DNA of 48,328 bases. Origin: Candidatus Berkelbacteria bacterium (GTDB taxonomy: Bacteria > Patescibacteriota > UBA1384 > XYA2-FULL-43-10 > 1-14-0-10-43-13). This document shows positions 10,301 through 38,770 of the stretch, one piece after another. Under the pieces are notes generated by a model, which worked only from the letters and a program-made list of their open reading frames with translations, searched no databases and had not been told where the DNA came from. The first letter of the stretch is position 1. Each line of letters starts with the position of its first letter. Location of the stretch: positions 1 to 48,328 of the forward strand of contig JBAWZC010000006.1 of NCBI GenBank assembly GCA_037143235.1. The letters run 5' to 3'. Made by a program: the position numbers and the translations under genes.

Positions 10301-13300
10301 AAGATCCAGAAGTATTGGGAACCTCTTGCCATACTGCCGCACCTGGTGTGTCATCCACACAGATCCATGCCTGTCCAGTTGATGGTATATACCATTGACT
10401 TTTGCCAGCAGTGTAAGGAGTTTTGTTCGTTTCCGCAGGAAAGTATCTCCTCACAGCATAATCAGTGCCTCCATAAGTTGAAGCTGATAAGTCGTAAAAT
10501 ACTGTCCCATCTCCAGAAACTACCGTTCCAGTCGCACCGTTGTATCCGACAGTAGTTTGCGTTGCCCAACCATTCGATGTGATAACCACGGAAGCATTAC
10601 CAGAACCAACAACTGTTATCATGGCCTTTTGCCCATCATCACTTATGCTTGAATATGAAAAATAGTTGATTCTTCCAATTTCTTCCGTAAACGACCCTCC
10701 ACTGTTAGAAGAATATTGATTCCCCCACATGACATATTGACCGTTCGCAGAGCTTGATATATTACATGTTTGTTGCCGGTACCCATGCCATGGGTCATCG
10801 GTAGCGACCGATGTCCATGATGTACCACCGTTGGTAGATTTTTTTAGCGTCGTGATGCCTGTACCGTCGGAATAAACGGCCGCATACAATATCTGCCCAT
10901 CGTCCGATAAGGTCGCTGCCGAACCTCGTGTGACACCGAGCGCGCTATTGAATGTCCATGAACCACCTGAATCAACAGAGAGGTAAACCCCCTGCGCACC
11001 ACTCGAGCCATCCCGCACGGCAATCATTTTTGTGCCACCGCCCGATACGCCTGCATCCTGCCACGCTGTCTCGGTTTTGGACCGAGTCCATGAAGTGCCA
11101 GAGTTTGTTGAGACGTAGATACCGTTGGTTGAGTCAACGACGACAACCGTCGCGCCAGAGTCCGAACAGTGAATCGTTTTCGCCGAAGCGAAGGAATTGC
11201 CGATAGAAAGGTTGGTCCACGAAACGCCGAAATTAGTTGACTTCTGAATCTCACCACTAGTGGAAGTACCAGAGTAAATAACTTGGCCATCCGAAGAAGT
11301 TGCAAGACCATATGCAAGTCCGCCCACAGGTGACACTGGTATCCATCTTATCGGAGCACTAGTGCTACTATCATCAAATGCATTTGGGAGTCTGGTTGCC
11401 GATATATTGTTGTTGAAACTACCACTTGCGCCAGCCCCTCCACCATCCACCGTCATATTGTAGAAATCATAGCCCGCGCCAGTACCGCCACTATTAATAG
11501 TTCTATCAGGGAATGAACCATTAAAATTGACCGTGCTTGTCCCCTTGGTAAATTCACCGCCAGTATTATTCCAACTACCGCCAATATTTAGGGTGTAGCT
11601 TCCCGCGTTTAATTGGCCAGCTGCCAAATTGATATCACCATCGTCATTTAGGTTATTAGCCAGAGTGATGGTGTCGGTGTAGCCAGAGTTAACGGAAAGC
11701 GACTTGATGTGATTTGTAAAGCTTGTGTCAAGCGTGGAAGCTTTAGTCGAGGTAGCATCGAAAATGATATCATCGGTATCAACTGGTGTAAGATTACCGG
11801 TCCAGTTGATAGCACAAGTCCAATTGTATTCATTTCCGGCACCACAAGTTGAAGTTGTGCCACGACCTGTCCAAATCCTAGTGCCGTAGGCCAAAAAACT
11901 GACAGCAATGGTGTGATCGGCGGTGACGCTGGTAAATGTGTATGGAGAACTCAAAGTGCCAGACAAAGAAACATTGTCGATTTTAATGTCGGAAATGTAA
12001 TAAAGACCAGATGGAGTAATGGTAAACGCCCGAGAAGCTCCATCGTCAACTGTTGCGGTTGGCGTTGGCGAGATAGTGCCGTTGCCGCCGACGACCGAGG
12101 AAGCAATGGTGTGAACGGCCAAAGTTGATGCATTAGCTGTGGTGCCATAAGCTGTTGCGACACTGTCACCGTTTTGGGCGGCCACCGAGTAAGTATAGCT
12201 AGTATTGGCGGTCAACCCCGAATTAGATATTGGCGAATTCCAAGTGCCGGCCGTTTGCCAAACCGCACTATCGCCCATGGTACCATTGGCCTGAATATAT
12301 TTGGTCGTGGAACTGTAAACTACCTTGATCGCAAATGTTGTGGAGGCAGGATTGGAATTGACATCGATCGTCACTGGGACGGTCGAGGAAGTTGGCGTAC
12401 CCAGAGTTGGAACAGCAGGCACATTGGCGAGGGTATATTTGGCGGCAGAGGATGATAGTGCAGTATTGGTCTTGTCACCGTTTCGGGCAATGACCTTGTA
12501 AGTGTGTTGAGTATTGACTGATAGGCCAGTGTCAACAAAACCAGAACCGCTGCCCCAGTTGGCGTAGGTGCGCCAGTGGTTGGCGTCATCACTGATCGAT
12601 TCGCAAGCATTGGTGGTGTAATTGAGGAAAGTCGAATCGCCATCGCAAGAGATAGCAAACTCTGTCCCAGCAGGATTGGAATTTACATTAATAATAGAAG
12701 TCAATGAAGTGGCTGAGGTGGCGTTCACTGTTGGAGCACCTGGAACATTGGCTAGAGTGTATTTTGGTGCTGAATATGCTGGAGCAGAATCACCAAAAGT
12801 ATTTGTCGCAATAACCTTGGCACAATATTGCGTATTAACAGACTTACTAGTAACAGCTTGTGTGATCGCATTGGCCGCTGTTGTAAAATCTGGTGTTCCT
12901 GAATAAGAAGCTGTTGAACAATCGGCTACCCCAGCAGCGACATAGACCTTGAAACCAGTCTCATCGGAAGAATTATCGGTCCAGCCAACAGTGAATCCAG
13001 TCGTTGACGGTAAAGTAATCGCCACGCCACTCGGAGCACTTGGCGCACTTCCAGGCAGTGTATCCACTCCCCCCTGCCAAGCCAATAATGGATAGGTCGT
13101 CCCACCGACCTCATCAAGCGTCCAGACATTTGGAAAATCCCATTCACCAGGGTCTGTACCAGCTGGAACAAAAGTTGCATGCTGCTTCATTTGTGCAGTG
13201 GTCTGAGGTGTAATGCCGGCAACGGGATCGGACACATTGCCGATGCTCGGCAAGTTATTAATAGTGTGGTCAAAATAGTTTGAGGCATAATTATTCTCGG

Positions 13301-15755
13301 AGGCATCGTAACCGATAAATCCGCCGATGCTACCACCACTCCCAACTACGGCACCTGTTGAATAACTATTGGTGATAGCATACCCATTATAACCGACAAA
13401 GCCGCCGATGTTACCACCACTCCCCGTTACAACACCAGTTGAATAACTGTTTGTGATAGTGCCGTAATTTTTACCGACAAAGCCGCCAAGGTTATACGAA
13501 TCCGCACTAACATTCTGGACACTGGCGACCGAATAACTGTATGTTGTGGTGCCGTAATTGTAACCGACAAGACCACCGGTAGCGTCATGATAATACTGAG
13601 TTACAATGCTGCCAGTTACATAGCTATTAGTCACGGTGCCTTCATTTAAACCGACAAGGCCACCGACCCCATAAGCACCTGTGCCAGCCGATATGCTAAT
13701 GTTAGTCAGACCAACATTTTTAATTACAGACGAAGAACTTGATACGTACCCGAACAAACCAATAGCACTAACGCCAGAACTATTAATAGTCAATTGATCA
13801 ATTGTTTTGCCGTTACCATCGAAATTACCATTAAAGCGGGTAACGCCATCAGAACCTATACCTATTGGTATAAACCCAGCACCGCCGTTCCAAGATGAAG
13901 TTAGGGATGCATCAATATCGTTGGCCAATTTATACGAAGCACCAAGATTTAACTGCATATTTTGAAGCTGGTTCAGAGTACAAATCAAATATGGATCACC
14001 GACAGTTCCAGTCCCGCCACAACTAATCTCCCAAGCCAAATGAGGATAACCAACACCCTCATTAATTGTCCAATCATTATTGGTAGTTGGCGGAAAAGTC
14101 CAGCCAGAAAAAGTCGATTTTGTCTTCATCTGCACGGTGGTGTCTTGCTCTATGCCTGTAACTGGGTCAGTCTTGTTGCCGACACTCTTCATATTGCTTT
14201 TGTCATGGTCAAAGTGGTTAGCAGTATATATTGTTGGATCACCGTCATATTCACCAGCCGAGTCATAACCGACAAAACCACCTTTTCTCGAAGTGCTACC
14301 ATTAAGAGTACCGGAAAAGTAAGAATGATCTTTGTCACCACTCCAGTTGTAACCAGCTATTCCTCCTAAACAACTATTGGGGGTATTGCCTGTCGTGATG
14401 TTGCCAGAAGCGTAAGAATTGGAAATAGTAGCACCAGAATAGCCCACTAATCCACCAGCCACACCCCAGTCTTGTGTGGAAGTCACATCGCCGGTGGCAT
14501 AAGAATTAGAAATAGTGCCATCAAACTCACCAGCCAATCCGCCTGCTTCGTTATTAGCGACGATATTACCTGTGGCGTAGGAGTCGGTAATCGTTCCACC
14601 ACTGCCATCACCGACTAAACCTCCCGCTCGGTCAGTTGAAGTAACATCTCTGATAGCCGAAGAATTGGAAATAGTTATAGTTCCGTCTGATTGTCCAACT
14701 AGTCCTCCAGACTTCCACGAATTATTACCCGAACTATTAATAGTAACGGCTGTATGGCAATTGGTAATCGTGACCGAGGAATTATAATTGATAGACCCTA
14801 TAAGGCCACCCGCGCCCCCACTGTTCCACCCATTAGAGGTAGCATTTATTGTCCCAGTCACAGTCACATTGGTGATCGAACCAGTCCAATATGATGTGCC
14901 CGAAACTAAACCTCCAACATTTATATTGTTACCAGGGTCGTCAATATCGATATTGGTCAGATTTAGATCTTTGATTTTGGATGTACTGCTGAGGTTAGAT
15001 AGTAGACCGCTAGAATCAAACCAAGAACCATGCTGGTAGAAGCCATTGATAGTTTTGTTATTGCCATCAAAATCATAGCCACCCAGGTAGAGTCTATCCC
15101 AACCATGGCCACTATTCCAATAGCGCATTTGGGAGGCATCGCCGTTGAAGGTGTCAGCCAATTTGATATTAGCATCAGTATTGGAAGTACCAGCCAAACC
15201 ATACAGATCATAGATGACATGATTGCCACTACCATCAACAGTCCAACGATGGAAGCCACCACTAGCGACATTAAATTGACCAGTTGTGCTGGTAACAGCA
15301 AAAGTGTAGGACGGATTGGAGATAAATAAACCCTGATATTCTTTGGAAAATAGATTAGTTGCGGCAAAGTTTCTAGCTTGAGTGATGGTGCCACTATAGT
15401 CGTTAGTAATAGTCAAACTTTTGACTGTGCCGGCAAAACCGCTATCAATGGTGGAATCGTTAGCCGAAGTGACGTCAAAAACCACATCATCGCCAGCAGC
15501 TGGCACGCCCGTCGGTGACCAAGAGAGCGGATCCGACCATGTTGTGTGCGTTGTGCCATTGCCATTCCAGGTCTTCGTCGCAGCATAGGCCTTGGGAATA
15601 TTGCTTAACAGACTCGTTGTCAAGAAACCGACGATCAAAAGTAAAGCCATCAAGCTTATTGTCATTTTTCTGAATAACAAAATATGCTTACTCATATTTG
15701 AGAAAACATTATTCTGACTAGTGTGAAGTCTTCGCTTAAACAGCTTGAAAATCAT
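4311..15755 (-). CDS. Giant (3814 aa) secreted, membrane-anchored surface/adhesin-like protein
   Basis: Signal peptide ending AYA; GLUG-like GGLVG repeats; fibronectin-III-like WTDNSxxE units; five InlB-B/Flg_new-like repeats; BNR/Asp-box (SxDxGxxW) and NHL (PxGIAIDxxGNVWV) propellers; C-terminal TM helices with carboxypeptidase-regulatory-like domains; SD GAGGAG. Confidence 0.88.
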   Translation of the reverse strand: MIFKLFKRRLHTSQNNVFSNMSKHILLFRKMTISLMALLLIVGFLTTSLLSNIPKAYAATKTWNGNGTTHTTWSDPLSWSPTGVPAAGDDVVFDVTSANDSTIDSGFAGTVKSLTITNDYSGTITQARNFAATNLFSKEYQGLFISNPSYTFAVTSTTGQFNVASGGFHRWTVDGSGNHVIYDLYGLAGTSNTDANIKLADTFNGDASQMRYWNSGHGWDRLYLGGYDFDGNNKTINGFYQHGSWFDSSGLLSNLSSTSKIKDLNLTNIDIDDPGNNINVGGLVSGTSYWTGSITNVTVTGTINATSNGWNSGGAGGLIGSINYNSSVTITNCHTAVTINSSGNNSWKSGGLVGQSDGTITISNSSAIRDVTSTDRAGGLVGDGSGGTITDSYATGNIVANNEAGGLAGEFDGTISNSYATGDVTSTQDWGVAGGLVGYSGATISNSYASGNITTGNTPNSCLGGIAGYNWSGDKDHSYFSGTLNGSTSRKGGFVGYDSAGEYDGDPTIYTANHFDHDKSNMKSVGNKTDPVTGIEQDTTVQMKTKSTFSGWTFPPTTNNDWTINEGVGYPHLAWEISCGGTGTVGDPYLICTLNQLQNMQLNLGASYKLANDIDASLTSSWNGGAGFIPIGIGSDGVTRFNGNFDGNGKTIDQLTINSSGVSAIGLFGYVSSSSSVIKNVGLTNISISAGTGAYGVGGLVGLNEGTVTNSYVTGSIVTQYYHDATGGLVGYNYGTTTYSYSVASVQNVSADSYNLGGFVGKNYGTITNSYSTGVVTGSGGNIGGFVGYNGYAITNSYSTGAVVGSGGSIGGFIGYDASENNYASNYFDHTINNLPSIGNVSDPVAGITPQTTAQMKQHATFVPAGTDPGEWDFPNVWTLDEVGGTTYPLLAWQGGVDTLPGSAPSAPSGVAITLPSTTGFTVGWTDNSSDETGFKVYVAAGVADCSTASYSGTPDFTTAANAITQAVTSKSVNTQYCAKVIATNTFGDSAPAYSAPKYTLANVPGAPTVNATSATSLTSIINVNSNPAGTEFAISCDGDSTFLNYTTNACESISDDANHWRTYANWGSGSGFVDTGLSVNTQHTYKVIARNGDKTNTALSSSAAKYTLANVPAVPTLGTPTSSTVPVTIDVNSNPASTTFAIKVVYSSTTKYIQANGTMGDSAVWQTAGTWNSPISNSGLTANTSYTYSVAAQNGDSVATAYGTTANASTLAVHTIASSVVGGNGTISPTPTATVDDGASRAFTITPSGLYYISDIKIDNVSLSGTLSSPYTFTSVTADHTIAVSFLAYGTRIWTGRGTTSTCGAGNEYNWTCAINWTGNLTPVDTDDIIFDATSTKASTLDTSFTNHIKSLSVNSGYTDTITLANNLNDDGDINLAAGQLNAGSYTLNIGGSWNNTGGEFTKGTSTVNFNGSFPDRTINSGGTGAGYDFYNMTVDGGGAGASGSFNNNISATRLPNAFDDSSTSAPIRWIPVSPVGGLAYGLATSSDGQVIYSGTSTSGEIQKSTNFGVSWTNLSIGNSFASAKTIHCSDSGATVVVVDSTNGIYVSTNSGTSWTRSKTETAWQDAGVSGGGTKMIAVRDGSSGAQGVYLSVDSGGSWTFNSALGVTRGSAATLSDDGQILYAAVYSDGTGITTLKKSTNGGTSWTSVATDDPWHGYRQQTCNISSSANGQYVMWGNQYSSNSGGSFTEEIGRINYFSYSSISDDGQKAMITVVGSGNASVVITSNGWATQTTVGYNGATGTVVSGDGTVFYDLSASTYGGTDYAVRRYFPAETNKTPYTAGKSQWYIPSTGQAWICVDDTPGAAVWQEVPNTSGSYFLTSAISATNNLTFSSGSFDASGYDLIAGNVIQSGGTFTAPTSGKSFIVNGGWNHSSGTFVPGTGTVTLAGDALIQGNTTFNNFTANTSGKTLTFAAASEQTISGTLNLLNSTAGTLALVSASPSSQWKIKPQETKAIANASGTVSVTDSNCTATDACEKDNTGSNSNITLVSGNTNWPYIFIPIVTTQSASSVTSNSAIGNGNITNIGGESNTVRGFEYATDTSSGHDCSTRGSISTAYDSGSYTAGAYTKGISGLVANTYYCARAYATNTAGSGYGSWVSFATLATHTLAYSAAAHGSIVGTTPQTIDYGGNGTQVTATPAANYHFVSWSDSVMTAARTDLNVTGDISVTATFAIDTYALTYSAGAHGSVVGISPQAVNYGSNGTQVTATPAANYHFVKWSDNNSTNPVRTDTNVTADITTTASFAIDTHTLTYSAEANGSIVGTSPQTVDYGSNGTQVTATPATNYHFVSWSDSVMTAARTDLNVTANITVTASFTLDAYALTYSAGAHGSIVGTSPQTVNYGSNGTQVTATPATGYHFVKWSDNNSTNPVRTDTNITAAITTIASFAIDTYTLTYSAGANGSIVGSTPQTVNHGSNGTQVTATPSANYHFVSWSDAYPTAARTDLNVTANISVTATFADNSTCTWSGGGADNNWSTAANWVSNIKPTAICDVVFDSTSGKNSIIDPSFADHVKSLSINTGYTGTITLARDLNVDNNVSLVAGTIDGSSSHFAFNVTGSWTNTGATFAINKPSINFNGIGEKTISTNNQAFYDVTIAGQGTPVVTGSTWVPSINSSNMTQLSNAGVVVGASVTGTSPWGVAIDPSGYVWVANRTTNNVSKFDNYGHLVGAYAVGSYPEGIAIDASGNVWVTNRDSNNVSKLSNLGVLLGTYGVGATPYGIAVDSLGNVWVANTGGSTVTKFSNSGIRLGVYNSGANPYGIAIDASDNVWVTNLNPNTVTKILNNGHLQATYSTGNHPAGIAIDANANVWVANYADNNVMKFDSAGSLLGTYNVGITPQGVAIDAAGNVWVANYASNTVAKLSSTGGLLGSYNVGSGPYSLGDMTGFIMQYFVQKNTGIGASYSLASDLSVVNNFTLSSGAFSAGLNNLTTNNFIQTGGRFTAPASGKNFDISGSFNHSFGVFLHNSGTVNLNGVSAQAVNGCTVFNNLNVISTSARTISFEARATVGVEGSFGAVGTSNNLINLISSVDGTPFILSKTNGVVLSDYLSIKDSTATGGAEWYAGSNSVNGGDNDGWIFGNAGGNAPPVTTSAIAAPSDVVIRSVTNNSFVVGWTDNSDNEVYFKIYLSNSPNGDCSRATYRAANSPDYTVTVNVHSRQVINRLPATQYCAKVVATNAIVSSAPAYSANRSTLANVPGAPVASALNPSQLSVKFTPNDNATAARYAVYDEATGKYVNQSDGQLHVLPDWQTYSVWGGTNGLIVSGLGADTRHSFKIKARNSDGIETVLSASAARYTFSSVPKLAIVKNGSSLKLVADTNGNSINSRYAFYVSTPGGDKYVRQSDGTLQDNIDWQSYADWGGDNGFVVNNLVKNTEYSFKVKAINSENIQTAYSDGVSADVNETSYQLNISGDENTIIDSDSIVNLVEGSDFSLTISAKDGYRVKEVFVDGRSMGRLTRYSLANIRANHTIVIVTEKNQLISSIADTITNILEKISIAPVNASTVIAVAAVASAAAIIPLVAISNMASFAGAASATQSAATSIWQFFVGLFGVKTALRRKKSGRIVEYGTNAPLPGVKVGIYQVIDVPGASAPVQKLLTSVYTDDQGYFGAVVEPGKYIIRIFKDKYLLAPPSALVIGTIFEIKTERDSLVMPNIQLTMDPKAAEANLRMLLIFKNIEIGLSIFSFLALVIGSIIIIDGLVREPSRLVYILAGVYALIWVFDLRFLLKKSPWGIVSDADTHQSLPLTMIRILDKAGSKLIRTAVSNKNGKYSVLLPKGQYTLLASHPGYDLARLGDLDTQHRNSIINRKIEMKRQ
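8371..9437 (-). repeat. Five tandem ~70-aa InlB-B-like coding repeats
   Basis: TYxLTYSAGAxGSIVGTxPQTVxYGSNGTQVTATPxxxYHFVxWSD...RTDxNVT five times, with high DNA identity. Confidence 0.9.
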
Positions 15756-27623: not shown

Positions 27624-27905
27624 CTAATCACAAACCTTCGCGCGCGACTTTTCTTTTCTTAGTGATTGATCTAGGTATTTTTTGATCAAAGATTGATATG
27701 GAATATCGAGCCTATTTGCTTCAACTTTTAGTTCGTCAATCAAAAATTGAGGCAATCGTATCGAAATCAACCGTAGTGTCGGCTTCAAATTTGGAAAATT
27801 TCCCGAACGCGCTTTTCGCCAATCCAAGAAATCAGCAGAATCATTTTCCTGCCAGAACTTTTCCTCTTCGTTCTTGTCTTCAAATTTTGGAATTTCTTTT
27901 TTCAT
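27624..27905 (-). CDS. brnA: BrnA/CopG-like antitoxin
   Basis: IPKFxxxxEExxFW...ISIRL...IPYQSLIK; overlaps the toxin gene. Confidence 0.85.
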   Translation of the reverse strand: MKKEIPKFEDKNEEEKFWQENDSADFLDWRKARSGNFPNLKPTLRLISIRLPQFLIDELKVEANRLDIPYQSLIKKYLDQSLRKEKSRAKVCD

Positions 27906-28209
27906 CGTGTTTAAAATTATTATAAATTTTTCTTTCTTTGTGGCTAGCCACTCTAGAAGAAATTACTCTTATCTTATCGCCACGAATCGTGAAAACTATA
28001 AATATTACTCTGCCTGTTTCGGTTTCTCCCAGTAAAAAATATCTAGCTTCAGATGTGCTATGATGATCATCTGGCAAAACAAGATTTGGATTGAAAAACA
28101 CTTCTTCTGATTCTGAGTTTGTAATTTTATGCTTAATCAAATTCTTCTCGATATTTCCGGCATCCCAGTCAAACTCAGTTAACTTTTCCAACTTTTTGTA
28201 TATATCCAT
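27880..28209 (-). CDS. brnT: BrnT family ribonuclease toxin
   Basis: FDWDxGNxxKNxxKH...EEVF...ExRY...IRVISSR...KERKIY. Confidence 0.9.
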   Translation of the reverse strand: MDIYKKLEKLTEFDWDAGNIEKNLIKHKITNSESEEVFFNPNLVLPDDHHSTSEARYFLLGETETGRVIFIVFTIRGDKIRVISSRVASHKERKIYNNFKHDEKRNSKI

Positions 28210-28335: not shown

Positions 28336-28379
28336 CAACAAAAAAGCCGCTCAAAATATTGAACGGTTTTTTTGTTTTG
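28336..28379. terminator. Bidirectional intrinsic terminator closing the accessory island
   Basis: CAAAAAAGCCGCTCAA-AATA-TTGAACGGTTTTTTTG, with A/U tracts on both sides. Confidence 0.75.
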
Positions 28380-28496
28380 ATCTGCAAGCAATAGTGCAGG
28401 AGTTGGCAACTTAATGCCGGCTCAATTGAGACGAAGCTCTTTTAAGGCGGCTAAGCCGCCACACCATCACTCACAGATCAAAGAATTCTATGCGAT

Positions 28497-28532
28497 GTCA
28501 TCCTGAGCGACTGCAAGGAGACGCGAGGATCT
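28497..28532. repeat. GTCATCCTGAGCG...GGATCT palindromic element
   Basis: Same GTCAT...ATCT frame as the other dispersed elements. Confidence 0.6.
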
Positions 28533-28585
28533 ATTTAAATTTTGGGGGCGTACCAGTGTTTTGTACACAGTACGCCCCAATGTTT

Positions 28586-28891
28586 TTACTCCTCCTTTTC
28601 GGCATCACACACATGCTCAGGGCAAAGCATGTCGGTGATGCAACCGTCGTCCACCAGCACGGCATGCGGGTCTTGTTTGACCCAGCCGGCTGGTATATGC
28701 CAGTCGCGAACAATGCCCCTCACTGGGCAACATGAGTAGCAACACTCGATCACGAATGTGCCACTGACAGTCTGTCTAGAGATCTTCTCTTCTAGACGTC
28801 TGACCTCTCGCCTTGCGGCATAGAGATCTTGGTGGTCTTGATCCCATTTTTCCAAAATAGAATCTTCCACCTGTTCCACCTGCTTCCCCAT
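28586..28891 (-). CDS. Hypothetical protein, coiled coil plus Cys/His-rich C-terminus
   Basis: Strong SD (AAGGAG...GAAGGAA); CCYSCC, H, C and CPEHVC residues; TAA stop followed by a hairpin. Confidence 0.7.
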   Translation of the reverse strand: MGKQVEQVEDSILEKWDQDHQDLYAARREVRRLEEKISRQTVSGTFVIECCYSCCPVRGIVRDWHIPAGWVKQDPHAVLVDDGCITDMLCPEHVCDAEKEE

Positions 28892-29009
28892 TTCCTTCTC
28901 CTCCTTTTTTTGTTTTTGCGCCCTAAAAGTTAAAATAATTTAACATTCCAGAGCACAAAGTGGAAAATACCATTTATTGACGATCCCTACAAGCCTACTA
29001 ACTGGATTT

Positions 29010-29068
29010 CCTTTTCGTCTTAATTTTCAAAGACTCATCAGCCCACCTTCGAACACTGGTGGGAAAGG
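29010..29068 (-). ncRNA. Hammerhead ribozyme, type III (copy A)
   Basis: Minus strand: CCUU-U^-CCCACC-AGUGUUCGAA-GGUGGG-CUGAUGA-GUCUU-UGAAAAUU-AAGAC-GAAA-AGG. Full catalytic core; stems I (6 bp), II (5 bp), III (4 bp); predicted cut at 29064/29063 after UUU. Confidence 0.85.
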
Positions 29069-29253
29069 TCCTCTCACCCTTCCGAAGAAGGGTGAGAGAC
29101 GGATATTTTGTATTCATCTCAAATACTTAAGGCTCTGCCGCCTTGCCTCACAACTACACTCCTCAATTTAATGACGAGCGGATGCCTTTTGGACATTACG
29201 CATGTGACTCGGATAGTTTTCTCGGATATCAGCCGTTTATTACCCAGCCGATT

Positions 29254-29568
29254 TTACTCGGCTGGGAATTCGATGTCTGCCTCGGAGAAACGCTGGACAT
29301 CTCCTCGGCGAATAGCCGTGATCTGGTAAGGGCCGACCCCTACCAGAATAAAGCCCGTCTGGGCATTGTCGCGCCACCACGGGACTCGCGCGATCAGTGC
29401 GTCGGCTTCCGTGCCGATCATTTTGAAATTTGACGGCACTGTTGCCGTCGTGAGCTGGTTAATCCAGCTCTCATGTTCCGGGCACCCGTAGGTGCTTTCT
29501 CCAACCCCCGTTAAGGAATCGGCTGGAACCGTATATAAACGGTTCCGGAACTTAATATTTCGGGTCAT
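29254..29568 (-). CDS. Hypothetical protein (104 aa)
   Basis: SD AAGGAGGG-TCATC-ATG; stop codon lies in a hairpin loop; no family recognised. Confidence 0.75.
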   Translation of the reverse strand: MTRNIKFRNRLYTVPADSLTGVGESTYGCPEHESWINQLTTATVPSNFKMIGTEADALIARVPWWRDNAQTGFILVGVGPYQITAIRRGDVQRFSEADIEFPAE

Positions 29569-29756
29569 GATGACCCTCCTTCTGTTCCATTCTTTTTTCT
29601 CTGGAACGATTTTTCGCCGTTTGGTCCGGCGTGGATAAGTTAAAATTTAACTCAACACATGCCAAACTAAAAACAAGTTTGAGACTGTTATGTATGAAAC
29701 AGAACAGTAGTAATAATTTTTGTCTTTGTTCGAATATTAAGTAAATATCGACTCTA

Positions 29757-29881
29757 AATCTGTCGGCAAGGGCGCAGGAGTGTTTTGTATAGTTTAGACA
29801 TGATACAAAACCGTCCTTGCTGACAGATTGAAGTGTCCATCACCACTCTCAAAAGAATGATGATGGACGGTAATTTGGCGT
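29757..29881 (-). other. Double long-hairpin structured RNA downstream of the 448-aa gene
   Basis: GTCCATCATCATTC/GAGTGGTGATGGAC hairpin, ACTTC linker, then AATCTGTCAGCAAGGACG/CGCCCTTGCCGACAGATT hairpin. Confidence 0.6.
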
Positions 29882-31228
29882 TTAGCTCAATCCTTTGAAC
29901 TTCGCCTGAAGCTGCCGCATAGCAGCCTCCAGATCTTCTATTGGCTTCGGATCTTCCAGGTCCTCTGCTTCTGCCACCATTTCTTCGATGACAGATTCAC
30001 GCCAGCGGAGATTCATGTTTTGGTATCCGAACTTTGGGTATACCAAGAACTCCAAAACCCCACCGGCGCATATAACAGTTCGCACCACTACAGCCTCTCG
30101 GTTCTCGCAGTGGGCTGTGGGGTCGCCGTAGCAGTTGACATCTGCCAGACGGCCCCAGTCTTGTATTTGAGTTCCATCTTTGTTCGCTACGCTCAAGTAG
30201 CTGAAAGACGGAACATAGCCTAACTCCATGCCAGCAACTGTCTGAATCTCGTCAAGACGTCTGGAGTAGAGCAGGTTTAAATTTTCGTCGAGGCCCATCG
30301 CGCCATTTAGCGCTCCGAGCTCTCTTTCTATCTCCCGAACAGTCTCCAACTGCTGGGCCGTCACACCATTAACCGGCAAGTGCATCACGCGCAGCCAGTC
30401 AATGGCGAGCTCGTCAGGTTGAACGAGGCACCAACCGATCATCCCGTCACTCTTGTAGAGAGGGATTGTGCTGAAGTCTCTCTTGCGGCGGGTACCGTCG
30501 GGTTGAACAACCCAGGCGTCGCCGTGATTTGACGCCCCTCCACGACGGTGCCACGCCGTGAAGTTGAAGAGGCCACCTTTTTCTTCGGCTTCCCGCCAAA
30601 GAGCAGTCGCTTTTTCCCAGGCGTCTCTCACCGATGAACAGATGTGTCCGTACTTGAGCAAATCATCCGTTCCGTCCTCGATTTTGGATATATCTTCGTT
30701 ATCGACGTAGCCAAAATAGTTCCCAGCTTCCGCAAAAATGGCTACCGCTGGGTGTTCCAACACGGCGTTCGCCCACTTGCCTGCCTCGTCAACCCATGCT
30801 TGACGGTTTTTCTCAATTAGTCCGTCAAAGTGAGCTTTGACCTCAGCAAATTTCTCCGCCGAATCAAGCATCACTTTTAGGGCCGGAACAGTGTACGTTC
30901 CATGCATAGCTCCGCCATCAACACGGACAAGCTCGGTGTGAAAAAGCCACATCCCGCCCTCATAGCTACGGTTGCTCGGGTAAGCAATCTGCCACACGCC
31001 TTTACTGCCCATTTTGGCATGAGCGGCATAGTCCGAATCCGGTTCCTTGCAGGTCCGGAATCCGTCGTCACTTTCCCACGAAGCCCCGACGGTGTGCCCA
31101 CCGAAGAACCATACATCCTCGCGAATGTTGTAGGTGCCTGGTTGAAATCCGGCAATCGCCAGAACTTCTTCGAGGCTAAATATTGGCGCTTGCCAATCGG
31201 CTGGTACTGGCAAAATTTTTTCTTCCAT
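29882..31228 (-). CDS. Hypothetical protein (448 aa)
   Basis: Long ORF with SD GGAGGTG; no family recognised. Confidence 0.8.
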   Translation of the reverse strand: MEEKILPVPADWQAPIFSLEEVLAIAGFQPGTYNIREDVWFFGGHTVGASWESDDGFRTCKEPDSDYAAHAKMGSKGVWQIAYPSNRSYEGGMWLFHTELVRVDGGAMHGTYTVPALKVMLDSAEKFAEVKAHFDGLIEKNRQAWVDEAGKWANAVLEHPAVAIFAEAGNYFGYVDNEDISKIEDGTDDLLKYGHICSSVRDAWEKATALWREAEEKGGLFNFTAWHRRGGASNHGDAWVVQPDGTRRKRDFSTIPLYKSDGMIGWCLVQPDELAIDWLRVMHLPVNGVTAQQLETVREIERELGALNGAMGLDENLNLLYSRRLDEIQTVAGMELGYVPSFSYLSVANKDGTQIQDWGRLADVNCYGDPTAHCENREAVVVRTVICAGGVLEFLVYPKFGYQNMNLRWRESVIEEMVAEAEDLEDPKPIEDLEAAMRQLQAKFKGLS

Positions 31229-31360
31229 ACTTCACCTCCATACGCTCCGTCTCATGGACATAATGCGTTTAGTGAAGATTGGAATTTTAAAAATAAAACT
31301 CTAAATCTTAACTAAAAAGATTGAGAGGCACGACCGTCATGGTGGTGCCTCCTGGGATGA

Positions 31361-31936
31361 TTATTCGCTTGCCATCCTGACAAGCAACTCGGCTAACGCC
31401 CTCACTGTGGGGCGTTCAGAGACTGGCTCACCTCTTTCAAGGTGATGCACTGATCCCCGATAAACACCGTCCGAGCCGAGAATCGGAACGGTGTCTTGGG
31501 TGCCAGCATAGTCGGACCATACCTCGGCAATCACCGAGAGTCCGACTTTCTGGCAAAAATCATGCCATTCTGGCAAACGATCAAGATCGCCGGCCAGAAT
31601 GATAACATGGGTAGCTGAGGCACAAATTGCCTCATTTTCAACGCTCGGGATGCCACCAATATCCACGAGCGTCAGCGAAAGTGTACAATTTCGTACAGAG
31701 TCAGCTATTCTCTGCACAAATTCGGGAGTGAACTTGGCCTTGTAGGCCGCTTTGCAAGCGGCAGCCAAGCTTGGGTCCTAATTCACTGTTTCCTGGAACC
31801 AGGACCCTTCACCGTCGGGGCACGCCGTAATTACATACGGGTACGGCGCCCCCGGAATCATTTTGATTGCTTGCTTTAATCCTTCACGCAAGCAACTTTT
31901 TCCGGACCTTGGTGGTCCGGCAAGAATTACTTTCAT
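31361..31936 (-). pseudogene. Csx3-associated P-loop NTPase interrupted by an in-frame TAG at codon 53 (31780-31778)
   Basis: From ATG 31936: MKVILAGPPRSGKS (Walker A)...ACPDGEGSWFQETVN*DPSLAAACK...LVDIGG (Walker B-like); SD AAAGGGGG; frame continuous with the 135-aa ORF. Confidence 0.8.
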
Positions 31937-32029
31937 AATTCCCCCTTTCCGCCATTTGGTCTGGCGTAGTCAGCTCCGTCAATCAATGAAGACCCAGCCA
32001 ACTATGCAACACCAAATATCACCATCTTT

Positions 32030-32063
32030 CCCTCTCCTTTCCAAGGAGAGGCTAGGTGAGGTG
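32030..32063. repeat. CCTCTCCTT-N-AAGGAGAGG palindromic repeat (same family as those around the DUF559 gene)
   Basis: CCCTCTCCTTTCCAAGGAGAGGCTAGGTGAGG resembles 38599-38634 and 38682-38715. Confidence 0.7.
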
Positions 32064-32071
32064 AAATTTTC

Positions 32072-32124
32072 CCTTTTCGTCTTAATTTTCAAAGACTCAT
32101 CAGCCCCGATGTATCGGGGGAAGG
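32072..32124 (-). ncRNA. Hammerhead ribozyme, type III (copy B)
   Basis: Minus strand: CCUU-C^-CCCCGA-UACA-UCGGGG-CUGAUGA-GUCUU-UGAAAAUU-AAGAC-GAAA-AGG. 35 nt identical to copy A; stem I differs in sequence but is fully paired; predicted cut at 32120/32119 after UUC. Confidence 0.88.
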
Positions 32125-32305
32125 TTGAAGCGCATCGAGTGAAATAAATCACTCATTGATGCGCTTCCGGATGTTTGGCTATTTTATCGCACAGCCAAGA
32201 GTGTGCGTCAGCAAAAAATTTTAACGAGTCGCTGATGAACTCGGCCTTCTCGGCATGGATGGTTTACTCGGGGACTCCATCGACCCTCAAATTTAACCGC
32301 CGATA

Positions 32306-32647
32306 TTACTCGGCAGCAGCGACATCGGTCGCCAGGATAATCTGTCCGACGGTGAACGCACCGCCGTGGCAGATCGAGACAACATACCCGGCCAGCTTGG
32401 GGTCGAACACCCCAACGGCCGAATACAAATGTCCCACACCATGCGCAATTGCGCAGGCGGCAGGGAGGGAAGCAGGTCCGTTCAGAAGGACTAACTCCCC
32501 GCCCTGGAGGTGGTTTTCTGCCAACGCCTTAACGGCGTCAGCGACGATTGCATCATTTTGCGCCGGCTCGCCAAAGCCGATGCGCAGTAGAGTGGCCGAA
32601 ACGCCGGCGGCGACTGCATTCTCGGCAGTAATTGTGTAAGTGGCCAT
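32306..32647 (-). CDS. csx3: Csx3/Crn3-like cyclic oligoadenylate ring nuclease
   Basis: LVLLNGPASLP...AHGVGHLYSAVGVFDPKL.GYVVSICH matches my recollection of Csx3 (His pair, DP(R/K)L, distal His); perfect SD TAAGGAGGT before ATG 32647. Confidence 0.82.
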   Translation of the reverse strand: MATYTITAENAVAAGVSATLLRIGFGEPAQNDAIVADAVKALAENHLQGGELVLLNGPASLPAACAIAHGVGHLYSAVGVFDPKLAGYVVSICHGGAFTVGQIILATDVAAAE

Positions 32648-32838
32648 GATGACCTCCTTACCAGTCACTCACTTATTGTATCGAGTGACTGTTCTGGGTT
32701 GGGTATTTAAGGTATTTACCCCCATTCGGAATAAAAGGACTATTAGAGAAGGCATTTTACAAAAAGGGTGATTTATACAACATCTTATATTCTCTGAGAG
32801 ACAAAAACTTCATTGAAACAATCGAGAAAAACAAAAAA

Positions 32839-33435
32839 ATGTCATTTAAAGCCAATGATCCTTTTGTAATAAAAGACTACCTGATAGATCAAGCTCAAAA
32901 GTATCGTGATGCCGAAAACATATTTAGCTCTGTTCTACCCTCTCTCTCAAATATGTTTAAGATGACCACCGAAAAGCCAATTGTCAGAGTTCTGGAAGGT
33001 TTTGAAGGTATCAAAGAACTCTACGAAGATACTTTGAGAGAAAAGGCACCTATTGTGGCTTTTCTGGAAGGGGCCGAATCAGACAAGAGAGTGTGGCGCT
33101 GGCTCAGAGATCAGTATGTCGAAAAACGAAAAAAGGCAAATATCTTTGCCCGTGTTATCGTCTCGAAAGAGATCAACGATGGAGATATCAATGAATACAC
33201 AGAAAAAGACAAGTACGAACTTCGGGAAACACGGATTGTGAACAAAAAAATATTCCCAAGCAAGCTTGAGATTCAAATATACGGCAATAAAGTCTCCTTT
33301 GCCAACTACAACCAAAACGACGTCCTAGTCGGCGTAATCATAGATAACATAAACATTGCGGAAAGTATGAGGGGACTATTTGAGTTGGCATGGATAGCCG
33401 CAGGAAAAAATGCGGCAGTCACGCGATGTGTTTGA
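32839..33435 (+). CDS. TrmB-like transcription regulator, apparently 5'-truncated
   Basis: KPxVRVLEGFEGIKELYEDTL...EIQIYGNKVS...IAESMRGLFELAW effector domain. The frame stays open upstream to 32689, encoding HTH remnants (KGDLYNILYSL) without an ATG. Confidence 0.75.
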   Translation: MSFKANDPFVIKDYLIDQAQKYRDAENIFSSVLPSLSNMFKMTTEKPIVRVLEGFEGIKELYEDTLREKAPIVAFLEGAESDKRVWRWLRDQYVEKRKKANIFARVIVSKEINDGDINEYTEKDKYELRETRIVNKKIFPSKLEIQIYGNKVSFANYNQNDVLVGVIIDNINIAESMRGLFELAWIAAGKNAAVTRCV

Positions 33436-37002: not shown

Positions 37003-37443
37003 ATGAACAAAGCATTGACCTTTATATTAGTTGCTGTTGGAGTAATAATTTTATCTATTGTCCTGATCTTTTCATTGAAAAATGACGGCAAGACAACAGG
37101 CACCAACACCGAGAGAGTCTTTTACTATGGCTCGACCTGTCCGCACTGCAAACTTGTCGAGGAGTTTATCAAAAACAACAATGTTAAAGCAAAATACGAT
37201 TTCACTGAAAAAGAGGTCTACGGAAGCAAGACCAACGCTGACGAACTTATCAAACGAGGAACCGCTTGCGGTCTCGATAAAGACAGTATTGGCGCCGTCC
37301 CAATGTTTTGGGACAATGGAACCTGTATTCTTGGGGACCAGCCAATAATTGATCTTTTTAAAAAACAGATTGGAGTTACCAGTGCATCTATCTCAAGTAG
37401 CAGCTCGAGCACAAGTTCAAGCTCAAGCTCGACAAGTTCGTAA
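37003..37443 (+). CDS. Membrane-anchored glutaredoxin/thioredoxin-fold protein
   Basis: N-terminal TM, CPHC, GAVP cis-Pro loop, GD motif, Ser-rich tail. Confidence 0.85.
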   Translation: MNKALTFILVAVGVIILSIVLIFSLKNDGKTTGTNTERVFYYGSTCPHCKLVEEFIKNNNVKAKYDFTEKEVYGSKTNADELIKRGTACGLDKDSIGAVPMFWDNGTCILGDQPIIDLFKKQIGVTSASISSSSSSTSSSSSSTSS

Positions 37444-37501
37444 TATTATTGGATTTCTTTTTTCGTCTCTGATTCTTCTCGTCCCGACAATAACCTCGGC
37501 A

Positions 37502-37939
37502 ATGTGCCCCGTTTGTACTGTCGCTGTCGTTGGCGGTATTGGCCTGTCTCGCTGGCTTGGCGTTGATGATTCAATCACTGGGATTTGGATTGGTGCGGCC
37601 TTGATGTCAATGTCTCTCTGGACTATCAACTGGCTGGACTCCAAAAAGATTAAGTTCTATGGCCGAAAAATCCTCATATTTCTCGTCATTTATGTCTCAG
37701 TCATCTGGCCTCTCTACGGACTAAACATTATGGGACACCCAATCAATGTGCTCTGGGGCATCGACAAGCTTTTACTCGGGATGACCTTGGGCAGTTTGAT
37801 CTTTATCATCTTTGCTCTTCTCTATCTATTCCTGAAAAAGAAAAACAATGGTCACGCCCACTTCGCTTTCGAAAAAATAGTTTTGGTTTTGGTGCCACTG
37901 CTCATCACGAGTGGCATATTTTACCTAATTACAAAATAA
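37502..37939 (+). CDS. CxxC-containing multi-TM membrane protein (start uncertain)
   Basis: MCPVCTVAVVGGIGLSRWLGVDD followed by about 4-5 TM helices. Confidence 0.75.
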   Translation: MCPVCTVAVVGGIGLSRWLGVDDSITGIWIGAALMSMSLWTINWLDSKKIKFYGRKILIFLVIYVSVIWPLYGLNIMGHPINVLWGIDKLLLGMTLGSLIFIIFALLYLFLKKKNNGHAHFAFEKIVLVLVPLLITSGIFYLITK

Positions 37940-37964
37940 TTGTCTTGTTACACCGGCCGCTTCT

Positions 37965-38031
37965 GTCATTCCCGCGCAGGCGGGAATCCACAAAATTGTC
38001 TTCAATAGATTCCCGCCTGCGCGGGAATGAC
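37965..38031. repeat. REP/dRS3-like paired palindrome element, family B (inverted copy of 1579-1644)
   Basis: Spacer reverse complement TCTATTGAAGACAATTTTGTGG versus TCTATTGAAGATTGTTTGTGG. Confidence 0.9.
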
Positions 38032-38073
38032 AAATGAACATAAAAATGGAAATTAATTCAATTTGGAGATGCT

Positions 38074-38598
38074 ATGGACATAAAAAATGTTGATCAGTTC
38101 GTCAAAAAGATGAACGATGTCAAAAAAGACAACAAGCTCGACCTCTCGGCCGACGAAGATCTGTCGATTGCCATTATGAATCTGATTTCAATCGAAGAAC
38201 ACTTCTTCTTCACCGCCAAAAAGACAGGCAAAGACAAATATTTTGATCTACTAAATGAAACTAGATCAATACGCAAAGAGCTGCTCAAGAAGATTGTGCC
38301 CGAATACGAGGGCGAGGTTTGGTGTATCTCCAAACATTTACTCGCAGCTTCGATGAGACTGATGGAGGTCGGCACCAAGATGCTTGGTCGCGGCAAGAAA
38401 AAGGACGCAGACCTCATGTTCGAAAAGGCTTACAATCTCTATACCCTGTTTTGGGGCATAAATTTGAAAGCTGTAGATATTGGTGATGTTTCAAAGCTAA
38501 ATGAAACCAAAACAGACAAGCAAGACAGTACTAAAAAAGGCGTATTTTCTAAGCTCGGAGATCTAGTCAAGAAAGCCATCGACTGCTGCATTGAGTAA
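38074..38598 (+). CDS. Conserved hypothetical helical protein with EEH, CxxKH and C-terminal DCC motifs
   Basis: MNLISIEEH...WCISKHLL...DCCIE; SD GGAG. Confidence 0.75.
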   Translation: MDIKNVDQFVKKMNDVKKDNKLDLSADEDLSIAIMNLISIEEHFFFTAKKTGKDKYFDLLNETRSIRKELLKKIVPEYEGEVWCISKHLLAASMRLMEVGTKMLGRGKKKDADLMFEKAYNLYTLFWGINLKAVDIGDVSKLNETKTDKQDSTKKGVFSKLGDLVKKAIDCCIE

Positions 38599-38770
38599 TC
38601 CCTCCTCTTTTCAAGGGGAGACTAGGTGGGGTTTAATTTTAAATTAACTCTACGAGAGTTATATCTGGGGTTTAAGTATTTCTCCCCATTTTCAAGGGGG
38701 AGCTAGAGGGGGTTTAATGCCCTAGAATTTTGACAGGGTTTAACCCTCCTGTTTTGAGAGAAGGGGGTTT
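38599..38770. repeat. Three palindromic CCC...TTTTCAAGGGG...GGGGTTT repeats upstream of the DUF559 gene
   Basis: Units at 38599-38634, 38682-38715 and a degenerate one at 38743-38770. Confidence 0.8.

Follow-up and report, generated by a model that had tools for sequence, protein, structure and literature searches.

A Csx3-NTPase gene pair with hammerhead ribozymes and hairpin-rich RNA in a Candidatus Berkelbacteria genome lacking detectable type III CRISPR genes

The window analyzed here, a stretch of 48,328 nucleotides from a Candidatus Berkelbacteria bacterium, is the entire contig C6 of a 21-contig, 842,647-base assembly that is 96% complete. On its minus strand it carries a csx3/crn3-like gene, a type III hammerhead ribozyme (HH1) and a P-loop NTPase gene, at the coordinates that an earlier note on this DNA had given for them. 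We read this cassette as one copy of a CRISPR-independent accessory operon that is patchily scattered in the Candidate Phyla Radiation (CPR)/Patescibacteria and encodes a ribozyme-processed Csx3-NTPase phosphodiesterase module, and we give this reading about an even chance of being right. The function that we infer is that of a CRISPR-independent cyclic-oligonucleotide phosphodiesterase module carried on a ribozyme-processed, RNase-resistant mRNA. Computation identified both proteins and their folds, established the hammerheads as real and recurrent elements, and revealed an excess of RNA structure, lesions in two genes and a lack of detectable type III CRISPR genes. With an in-frame TAG in the NTPase gene and a TrmB-like regulator gene that has lost its 5' end, this copy looks partly decayed.

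The Csx3-NTPase pair and its relation to type III CRISPR

The csx3/crn3-like gene (32306-32647, minus strand) codes for a protein of 113 aa and is apparently intact. Its open reading frame (ORF) is open from a GTG at 32668 (32306-32668), and the likely start is the ATG at 32647, which is preceded by an AAGGAGG site. Profile and structure searches bore out the Csx3-like nature that the earlier note had assigned to it. The protein scored 26.5 bits against Pfam PF09620 (Cas_csx3; cut-off 21, E 6e-6), passing the family threshold, and this locus was the sole PF09620 match in the whole genome; the PADLOC Csx3 models gave E values of 6e-14 and 1.4e-13. When an AlphaFold2 model built on 41 relatives (pLDDT 97.2) was compared with the PDB by Foldseek, the 11 best matches were all Csx3 of Archaeoglobus fulgidus (AfCsx3; TM 0.58-0.75, probability 1.00, about 21-24% identity). 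With a profile of the 41 relatives, AfCsx3 was again the top PDB match, at an E of 0.026 that is borderline; phmmer with the single sequence returned nothing relevant from this database. The window gene product is a genuine Csx3/Crn3-fold protein, the Csx3 fold being a divergent alpha-beta domain that resembles CARF and STAS. In the available portion of PMC7371418, residues H57, H60, D69, R71, H80, and G45 of AfCsx3 are given as essential or absolutely conserved. The profile alignment to AfCsx3 showed that the family retains equivalents of H57, D69, H80, and G45 and that Lys replaces R71; S44 of AfCsx3 is replaced in the window protein.

The second gene (31361-31936, minus strand) spans 191 codons and codes for a P-loop NTPase of the Csx3-AAA family with the motifs GPPRSGKS and CPDGEG. 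It aligned to positions 108-285 of 286 of the PADLOC model PDLC01045 'Csx3-AAA' (E 7e-60), and the window Csx3 aligned to positions 9-99 of the same model (E 1.4e-13). Together with the fusions found in relatives (see below), this supports the earlier statement that fusions with Csx3 are known for the family of the neighbor. In the CPR the pair shows high conservation and is common across metagenomes, with 1127 database relatives of the NTPase at E <= 0.001 among 1649 candidates; 120 relatives among the matches listed were 72-88% identical and 187-246 aa long.

The label 'AAA' fits this protein poorly. The AlphaFold2 model of an intact, 87% identical homolog (pLDDT 88.9) was most similar to MinD (Z 13.8), ApbC (13.2), ParA (12.6), dethiobiotin synthetase (12.2) and GPN-loop GTPases (10.4-10.5). 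Pfam gave no AAA family match, and no entry of the AAA+ fold, which has an ASCE core and a helical lid, was among the best 50 structural matches listed, a deeper AAA+ match being possible. The homolog thus models as a SIMIBI-class (MinD/ParA/Mrp-like) fold and not as an AAA+-like one, suggesting that 'AAA' is a historical label and departing from the AAA-type ATPase named in the earlier note. A complex prediction for the NTPase and Csx3 of genome G309 scored 0.02, which is informative in neither direction.

The P-loop and the CPDGEG motif are present as the earlier note described; the break in the reading frame had been overlooked. The in-frame TAG lies at 31778-31780 (codon 53), a variable position at which the three closest aligned homologs carry Gln or His. 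The closest homologs carry Gln there, and one substitution of the C-to-T type would turn a CAG codon into the stop. Another assembly, from the probable source run at about 12x depth, has identical letters at this site and is not independent evidence. Recoding of TAG, through pyrrolysine or a code change, was considered and rejected, as table 11 leaves the window's other long ORFs unbroken and the homologs have ordinary residues at this position.

Csx3 and the NTPase are encoded here by two ORFs 370 nt apart with the ribozyme in the spacer, and not by one fused polypeptide. In neighborhood maps, for which ORFs were called and clustered by a custom script and Pfam names were added, the split form was the rule among the non-cyanobacterial (mostly CPR) loci, with csx3 preceding the NTPase gene in some relatives and following it in others. 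Fusions also occur in both orders, as Csx3-NTPase proteins of 305-343 aa and NTPase-X-Csx3 proteins of about 440-610 aa, which argues that the two parts act together. The cyanobacterial fused orthologs are 45-57% identical to the CPR NTPase. In 4 of 7 non-CPR loci (6 cyanobacterial, 1 from Poribacteria), the fused gene stands directly before cas10 of type III-A, III-B or III-D, accompanied by a WYL regulator. This adjacency ties the family to cyclic oligoadenylate (cOA) signaling, in line with the proposal in the accessible text of Shah et al. (PMC6546367). In addition, in two loci labeled as non-CPR, L040 (split) and L057 (fused), a reverse transcriptase and Cas1 come after Csx3/NTPase. These make up an adaptation module of the type III style and show that the CRISPR-linked form is not limited to cyanobacteria. 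The combination of Crn3 and an 'AAA' partner is recognized as a type III CRISPR accessory but has no explained function, and the reviews PMC8284326 and PMC12409355, in the parts available, call the function of the ATPase partner unknown. With a pair that is free of CRISPR, the task of the NTPase can be addressed in a simple setting.

The absence of cas10 and of a CRISPR array, noted earlier for the 48 kb of the window, extends to the whole assembly. There was no match to the Cas10 palm (PF22335), RAMP (PF03787) or Cas1 (PF01867) families in its 842,647 bases, and a custom k-mer scan found no CRISPR-like array. In a sample of 401 genomes of the phylum, the NTPase family occurred in 9, with the close form in 3 of these, and in none of the 4 genomes of the same family. 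Cas10 palm matches were found in 14 of the 401 genomes (7 above the cut-off), and none of these was among the 9 that carry the NTPase. The pair is thus an orphan, as the earlier note had proposed, and the lack of co-occurrence with Cas10 in the sampled genomes suggests that the function of the module is separable from CRISPR.

One observation bears on other sources of signal. The genome codes for a 300-aa cyclase of the cyclic-oligonucleotide-based antiphage signaling system (CBASS) type on contig C2 (123772-124629, minus strand; also locus L096, 1111-2013), which matched PADLOC PDLC00776 over its full length (E 8e-81) and stayed below the threshold of Pfam SMODS (23.4 bits, cut-off 26.5). Its neighbors in what looks like an operon are a DUF84 inosine/xanthosine triphosphatase-like gene and a weakly matching nucleoside 2-deoxyribosyltransferase-like gene, with no obvious effector among them. 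A search for SAVED domains returned nothing, and control genomes were equally blank, so this search was undiscriminating.

Hammerhead ribozymes and RNA hairpins of the cassette

HH1 (32067-32129, minus strand) is a type III hammerhead with a stem III of CCUU/AAGG, a stem I of 6 bp and a stem II of 5 bp. Its core consists of CUGAUGAG, CGAAA and a UC at the cleavage site, with cleavage predicted 3' of C32120, and its minimum free energy (MFE) fold is a canonical three-way junction. Rfam RF00008 (Hammerhead_3; clan CL00010), the best Rfam match of these hammerheads, covered 32069-32127 with 31.1 bits (E 2e-4) in a permissive scan of 1.2 kb. A core-motif scan revealed same-strand copies in 13 related loci and a probable second hammerhead in the window, HH2 (29006-29072, minus strand), which was also indicated by sequence comparison and by the covariance model described below. 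HH2 shares 35 identical nt with HH1, covering the core and stem II, differs in stem I and likewise has a three-way junction as its MFE fold. Its cleavage register is ambiguous (about 29063/29064), and the site is UUU or UUC depending on the register. HH1 and HH2 are about 3.06 kb apart and enclose the NTPase gene and ORFs of 448 and 104 aa.

The hammerheads of the 13 relatives, with the window copies left out, were aligned on a hand-drawn three-helix structure, from which the covariance model R1 was built. In this alignment 99% of the cells were paired, against 31-45% in slid controls, compensatory changes were present in 13 of 15 pairs, and the covariation score was matched by none of 500 shuffles. 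Searched over 89 sources (676 kb), R1 recovered HH1 with 40.5 bits (E 9e-8) and found 24 sites, all on the strand of the NTPase gene. The hammerheads recurred in 18 related loci, where they most often stand shortly after csx3, and 38 cyanobacterial or other non-CPR-type loci had no R1 hammerhead. HH1 and HH2 were the sole R1 matches in the whole genome. These results indicate that the hammerheads are real and recurrent elements, so that the ribozyme placed between the two genes by the earlier note is well founded.

Their positions follow a pattern. A hammerhead lies 35-185 nt past the stop codon of 12 of 42 stand-alone csx3 genes, and the other R1 hammerheads stand after an NTPase gene (3), a fused gene (1) or other cargo genes (8). 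Around the non-cyanobacterial loci there was about one hammerhead per 16 kb (22 of the 24, in 349 kb), compared with 23 in 151 whole genomes of the phylum, an enrichment that is rough, the genome-scale search having used stricter filters. In that genome-scale search, 20 of the 151 genomes had a hammerhead, at intergenic positions that include one before nusA. Hammerheads are strongly concentrated at the cassettes, with a share that varied from 2 of 2 in this genome and near the G176 cassette to 1 of 2 in G309 and 0 of 2 in G310. The hammerhead is a recurrent punctuation mark of csx3 cassettes that is not exclusive to this gene pair. HH1 may plausibly set the csx3:NTPase stoichiometry, as the earlier note suggested.

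Several further arrangements were observed. In other CPR genomes, the same type of hammerhead occurs between housekeeping genes at loci L105 (G010:C6), L106 (G075:C1) and L108 (G120:C16), the sites including one directly upstream of nusA and one that separates a solute-binding protein gene from a tRNA-synthetase-like gene fragment. Some operons have two or three hammerheads, as in L054 (6226-6284 and 6333-6391), L033 (3806, 4603, and 5002) and L049 (6146 and 7837). Cleavage at both members of the L054 pair, 107 nt apart, would free a tiny RNA that carries a 5'-OH and a cyclic phosphate at its ends. A circular RNA formed between HH1 and HH2 by RtcB ligation was considered and set aside, as the genome has no RtcB match.

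The RNA of the cassette is also unusually rich in hairpins. When windows of 150 nt were compared with dinucleotide shuffles, the sense strand of 28351-32700 had a mean z of -4.00 over 29 windows, with 86% below -2; 65 flanking windows had a mean z of -0.92, with 15% below -2 (Mann-Whitney p 1e-9). The antisense strand of the cassette was milder (mean z -2.81), which fits selection on the transcript rather than on the DNA. Perfect hairpins occur inside the coding regions. In NTPase coding sequences from 22 CPR loci, taken in 150-nt tiles, the mean z was -2.55 and 13 of the 22 were below -2, the three low-GC sequences being about zero. The 10 cyanobacterial orthologs had a mean z of -0.58, and none of them was below -2. 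Compared by eye, hairpins stay at the same site between lineages with shifted registers. The G+C content of the cassette (0.50-0.54, vs about 0.41) may reflect hairpin packing as much as foreign origin. Elsewhere in the window, the ORFs 37349-37939 and 38074-38598 have a very strong predicted structure between them (37951-38100; z of -10.4 for the minus strand and -6.8 for the plus strand), which matched no Rfam family at threshold.

Regulator, cargo genes and genomic setting

The TrmB-like regulator remnant (32839-33435, plus strand) is divergent from csx3. Three-frame translation showed that about 45 N-terminal codons are absent compared with 24 full-length neighbors of 216-290 aa, and the end of the TrmB-like winged helix is still readable in frame upstream of the ATG. 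A TrmB-like gene lies near the cassette in 25 loci including the window, with a Pfam TrmB match on the relative L023. Other recurrent neighbors code for a protein of 620-750 aa with a C-terminal GNAT domain, HD_4 hydrolases, and bpMoxR with vWA.

Downstream of the NTPase gene on the minus strand is a GC-rich and hairpin-rich orphan cargo gene of 448 aa (29882-31228). Its product had no Pfam, NCBIfam or PADLOC match and only 2 database hits, gave no usable Atlas hit and a poor Atlas model (pLDDT 0.33), and is partially similar to cargo ORFs of L056 (E 7e-21) and L050 (E 9e-5). An ORF of 104 aa (29254-29568, minus strand), within the block bounded by the hammerheads, had no Pfam, NCBIfam or PADLOC match. 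Downstream of HH2 and inside the highly structured zone 28351-32700 is an ORF of 101 aa (28586-28891, minus strand) with no PADLOC match, whose region has sense-strand z values of -5.9 to -8.0. A BrnT toxin gene and a BrnA (CopG-type) antitoxin gene lie immediately downstream of the cassette (27624-28209, minus strand). BrnT is a ribonuclease toxin, and is of interest beside an operon that looks RNase-resistant.

A hairpin repeat of 38 nt (32030-32067, minus strand) with the sequence ATTTCACCTCACC..GCCTCTCCTT..AAGGAGAGG adjoins HH1 on its 3' side and stands 93 nt ahead of the NTPase start codon. Allowing up to 8 substitutions, the genome has 12 copies of it including this one, with a further copy in the window at 38600-38637 and others on other contigs. 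In the second assembly, the 129-nt bin 31996-32124 that contains the repeat had a summed contig depth of 87.5, compared with 11.7-13.2 in the adjoining bins, and many unrelated flanks. The repeat looks like a dispersed, REP-like family of this genome. Apart from this bin, the contig depth in that assembly was even (11.7-20) over the cassette and its flanks; an assembly chimera was rejected on this ground, as far as can be told.

The gene set of contig C6 resembles a CPR/Patescibacteria chromosome, with GluRS, DnaE, L19, NDK and type IV pilin-like genes. The window also has an ORF of 3814 aa (4311-15755, minus strand) with InlB B-repeat, NHL/SGL beta-propeller, GLUG and fibronectin type III domains, the product of which is probably a giant surface protein. 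In related loci, tRNA genes were observed 0.3-3.2 kb upstream of csx3/NTPase (L033, 2033-2105; L049, 2558-2629; L021, 3629-3710; L012, 5505-5575), the element of L012 being a tRNA-like match to the tmRNA model. They might mark integration hot spots.

Proposed mechanism, alternatives and comparison with known systems

In the reading that we favor, the core of the operon would be a split 'Csx3-AAA' in which a small NTPase of the SIMIBI class partners a phosphodiesterase subunit resembling Crn3. This core is divergent from the TrmB-like regulator gene, and variable orphan cargo genes come after it. The operon would be a single, densely hairpinned RNA in which cis-acting type III hammerheads cut between cistrons, with HH1 acting after csx3 and HH2 after the 104-aa gene. 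Each piece downstream of a cut would begin with a 5'-OH behind a folded ribozyme, and each block of cistrons could then have its own stability, by which the csx3:NTPase ratio would be set. Csx3 dimers would bind and cleave an oligonucleotide like cyclic tetra-adenylate (cA4) in a metal-dependent manner, with their activity gated by the nucleotide state of the NTPase. As no Cas10 is present, something else would have to supply the substrate. The points that we infer are self-cleavage in vivo, the substrate, the role of the NTPase and the biological purpose.

Several results weigh against this reading. The position of the catalytic AfCsx3 residue H60 is a Gly in the window Csx3 and is variable across the family, with a conserved His at +1, one residue later, so that the equivalence of H60 is uncertain; the cA4-contacting R46 of AfCsx3 is a Pro; and the NCBIfam Crn3 equivalog TIGR02579 was not reached (18.3 bits, cut-off 55.4). 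Only readthrough of the TAG would allow a full-length NTPase in this copy. As a possible source of the substrate, the contig-2 CD-NTase is the sole candidate cyclase found. The CBASS-type cyclase family, present in 15 of the 401 genomes, is shared with the NTPase only in this genome (1 of 9); the non-CRISPR nucleotide signaling considered in the earlier note therefore gains a cyclase in the genome and no consistent pairing with the module. HH2 is weak (R1 23.8 bits, E 0.004; Rfam 17.5 bits, E 0.88), and the RF00008 scores of HH1 (31.1 bits), HH2 (17.5 bits) and the relatives (28.8-44.2 bits) are all below the gathering threshold of 48.5. At this threshold Rfam reported three tRNAs only and no ribozyme in the window, and no ribozyme in 7 related loci, so such hammerheads remain unannotated by standard pipelines in CPR genomes. 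RNAalifold on 28 NTPase coding sequences detected no positionally conserved structure (34 pairs, 4 compensatory), which means that any selection would be for hairpins in general, and a compositional or mutational cause of the hairpin excess is possible.

The cassette might instead be mobile counter-defense cargo of an unrecognized plasmid, integrative and conjugative element or phage, whose Csx3-NTPase would destroy the cOA alarm of type III CRISPR or CBASS in recipients, like viral AcrIII-1. We consider this unlikely, and equally unlikely that the structured, ribozyme-cut mRNA serves such cargo by aiding expression while host RNases are active. Mobility would fit the patchy distribution (9 of 401 genomes, 0 of 4 in the same family), the very high conservation between CPR lineages, the difference in composition between cassette and flanks, the variable orphan cargo genes, the tRNA genes adjoining several cassettes and the decay of this copy; Cas10 does occur in some CPR genomes (14 of 401). 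However, IMG/VR viral contigs contained only 2 distant relatives (25-32% identity) and not the close form, which speaks against the phage-derived cargo suggested earlier, and no integrase, relaxase or phage genes were seen beside the mapped cassettes. In addition, the conserved TrmB and GNAT neighbors evolve at host-like rates, the cassette is chromosomal and adjoins housekeeping genes, and the GC excess may be caused by RNA hairpins rather than by foreign origin.

A bolder reading is an 'RNase-proof antidote operon', in which mRNAs selected for nearly full pairing, released with a 5'-OH by the hammerheads, would survive and stay translatable under RNases specific for single-stranded RNA. These RNases could, for example, be cOA-activated enzymes, toxins or RNA-guided targeting systems, and Csx3-NTPase would remove the nucleotide alarm, independently of CRISPR in the CPR. 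We regard this view as quite improbable. If true, it would mean that genes can be expressed during immune or toxin stress by a new strategy, in which ribozymes, RNA architecture and second-messenger turnover are coupled.

Csx3 could also act as a CARF-like receptor that switches the NTPase on, the pair being a sensor-effector module for defense or stress rather than an eraser of the signal; this, too, seems quite unlikely. Allosteric control of the ATPase by the Csx3 domain was the original Csx3-AAA proposal of Shah et al. (PMC6546367, in the text available), and it is compatible with fusions in either order, with the bpMoxR-vWA conflict-system genes and HD_4 hydrolases that accompany some cassettes, and with the lack of conservation at the H60 position. 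However, most catalytic residues of AfCsx3 are kept (H57, D69, H80, and Lys for R71), no toxic or effector domain is evident in the SIMIBI NTPase of 191 aa, and 8 of the 9 genomes have no signal synthase of the two families searched (Cas10 palm and CBASS-type cyclase).

That the cassette is a non-functional relic here, with no part under selection, is very unlikely. The in-frame TAG, the roughly 45 missing N-terminal codons of the TrmB-like gene and the REP-like repeat inserted in the csx3-NTPase spacer are what such a relic would show, but the NTPase frame is otherwise intact and 87-88% identical to the closest intact homologs, and there is no damage to csx3, the RNA hairpins or either hammerhead core. 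The intact remainder suggests that any inactivation is very recent, or that it is a variant within the population at about 12x depth.

The activity first reported for Csx3 was that of a Mn-dependent RNA 3' deadenylase. A role in RNA-end metabolism, in which Csx3 and a kinase-like NTPase would target the 5'-OH and 2',3'-cyclic phosphate termini left by hammerheads, or the structured RNAs themselves, would suit the physical tie of hammerheads to csx3 (12 of 42 genes), their rough enrichment at the cassettes, the RNA cleavage by AfCsx3 on record in the accessible part of PMC7371418 and the weak nucleotide-kinase-family match of the P-loop, but it is highly improbable, because the deadenylase reading of AfCsx3 has been superseded by cA4 specificity (PMC7371418 and PMC8284326, in the portions available), the same hammerheads occur between unrelated housekeeping genes, many cassettes (e.g., G138) have no hammerhead and the cyanobacterial orthologs have none.

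Compared with Crn3/Csx3 of A. fulgidus (AF1864; PDB 3WZG, 3WZI, 6YUD, and 6VJG), the window Csx3, a putative phosphodiesterase, has the same fold and size and keeps H57, D69, H80, and G45, but it has no type III CRISPR neighbors, its His is shifted by +1 from H60, and other residues stand in place of R46 and S44. The text available of Shah et al. (2018; PMC6546367) defined Csx3-AAA (cluster 35, PDLC01045) and AAA-Csx3 (cluster 67, C3a67, PDLC01059), and both window proteins fit the Csx3-AAA model. In contrast to the cyanobacterial Csx3-AAA, the pair in the window is split into two genes that flank a ribozyme, has TrmB instead of WYL and no adjacent cas10, and the CPR mRNA is packed with hairpins, whereas the cyanobacterial genes are not. 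The viral ring nuclease AcrIII-1/Crn2 is a functional analog in that it is also encoded away from CRISPR loci. However, its DUF1874 fold is unrelated to Csx3 according to the available part of PMC12409355, and AcrIII-1 is borne by viruses or plasmids, whereas the window cassette is chromosomal with no close viral relatives found.

The hammerheads share with the type III hammerheads of RF00008 the cores CUGAUGA and GAAA, the UC site and an architecture of three helices of which stem III is open, and they differ in that the copies of the window and its relatives (17.5-44.2 bits) are intercistronic in bacterial operons and not part of viroid or satellite RNAs or of eukaryotic repeats, in which hammerheads are known. 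In a limited library of papers, no paper on hammerhead ribozymes in the CPR/Patescibacteria was found; in the same library, hammerheads and Csx3 appeared together only in two papers, which by title and abstract are a broad CRISPR review and a biosensor review, and the arrangement of an orphan Csx3-NTPase with hammerheads and a hairpin-rich mRNA was not found in print. These cassettes bring two questions within reach of ordinary experiments, namely the purpose of bacterial hammerheads and whether selection can act on mRNA structure operon-wide. A comparable arrangement is known from ribozyme insulators (RiboJ) and from natural intercistronic ribozymes in bacteria and phages. HH1 is likewise a hammerhead followed by a hairpin just before a ribosome-binding site, and its cleavage would define the 5'-OH end of the downstream RNA. 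Unlike RiboJ-type insulators, HH1 is natural, is present in more than one copy in one operon, and lies in an RNA that is rich in hairpins throughout, including its coding regions. The csx3 cassettes provide a natural, many-times-replicated case of hammerheads as intercistronic punctuation in bacterial operons.

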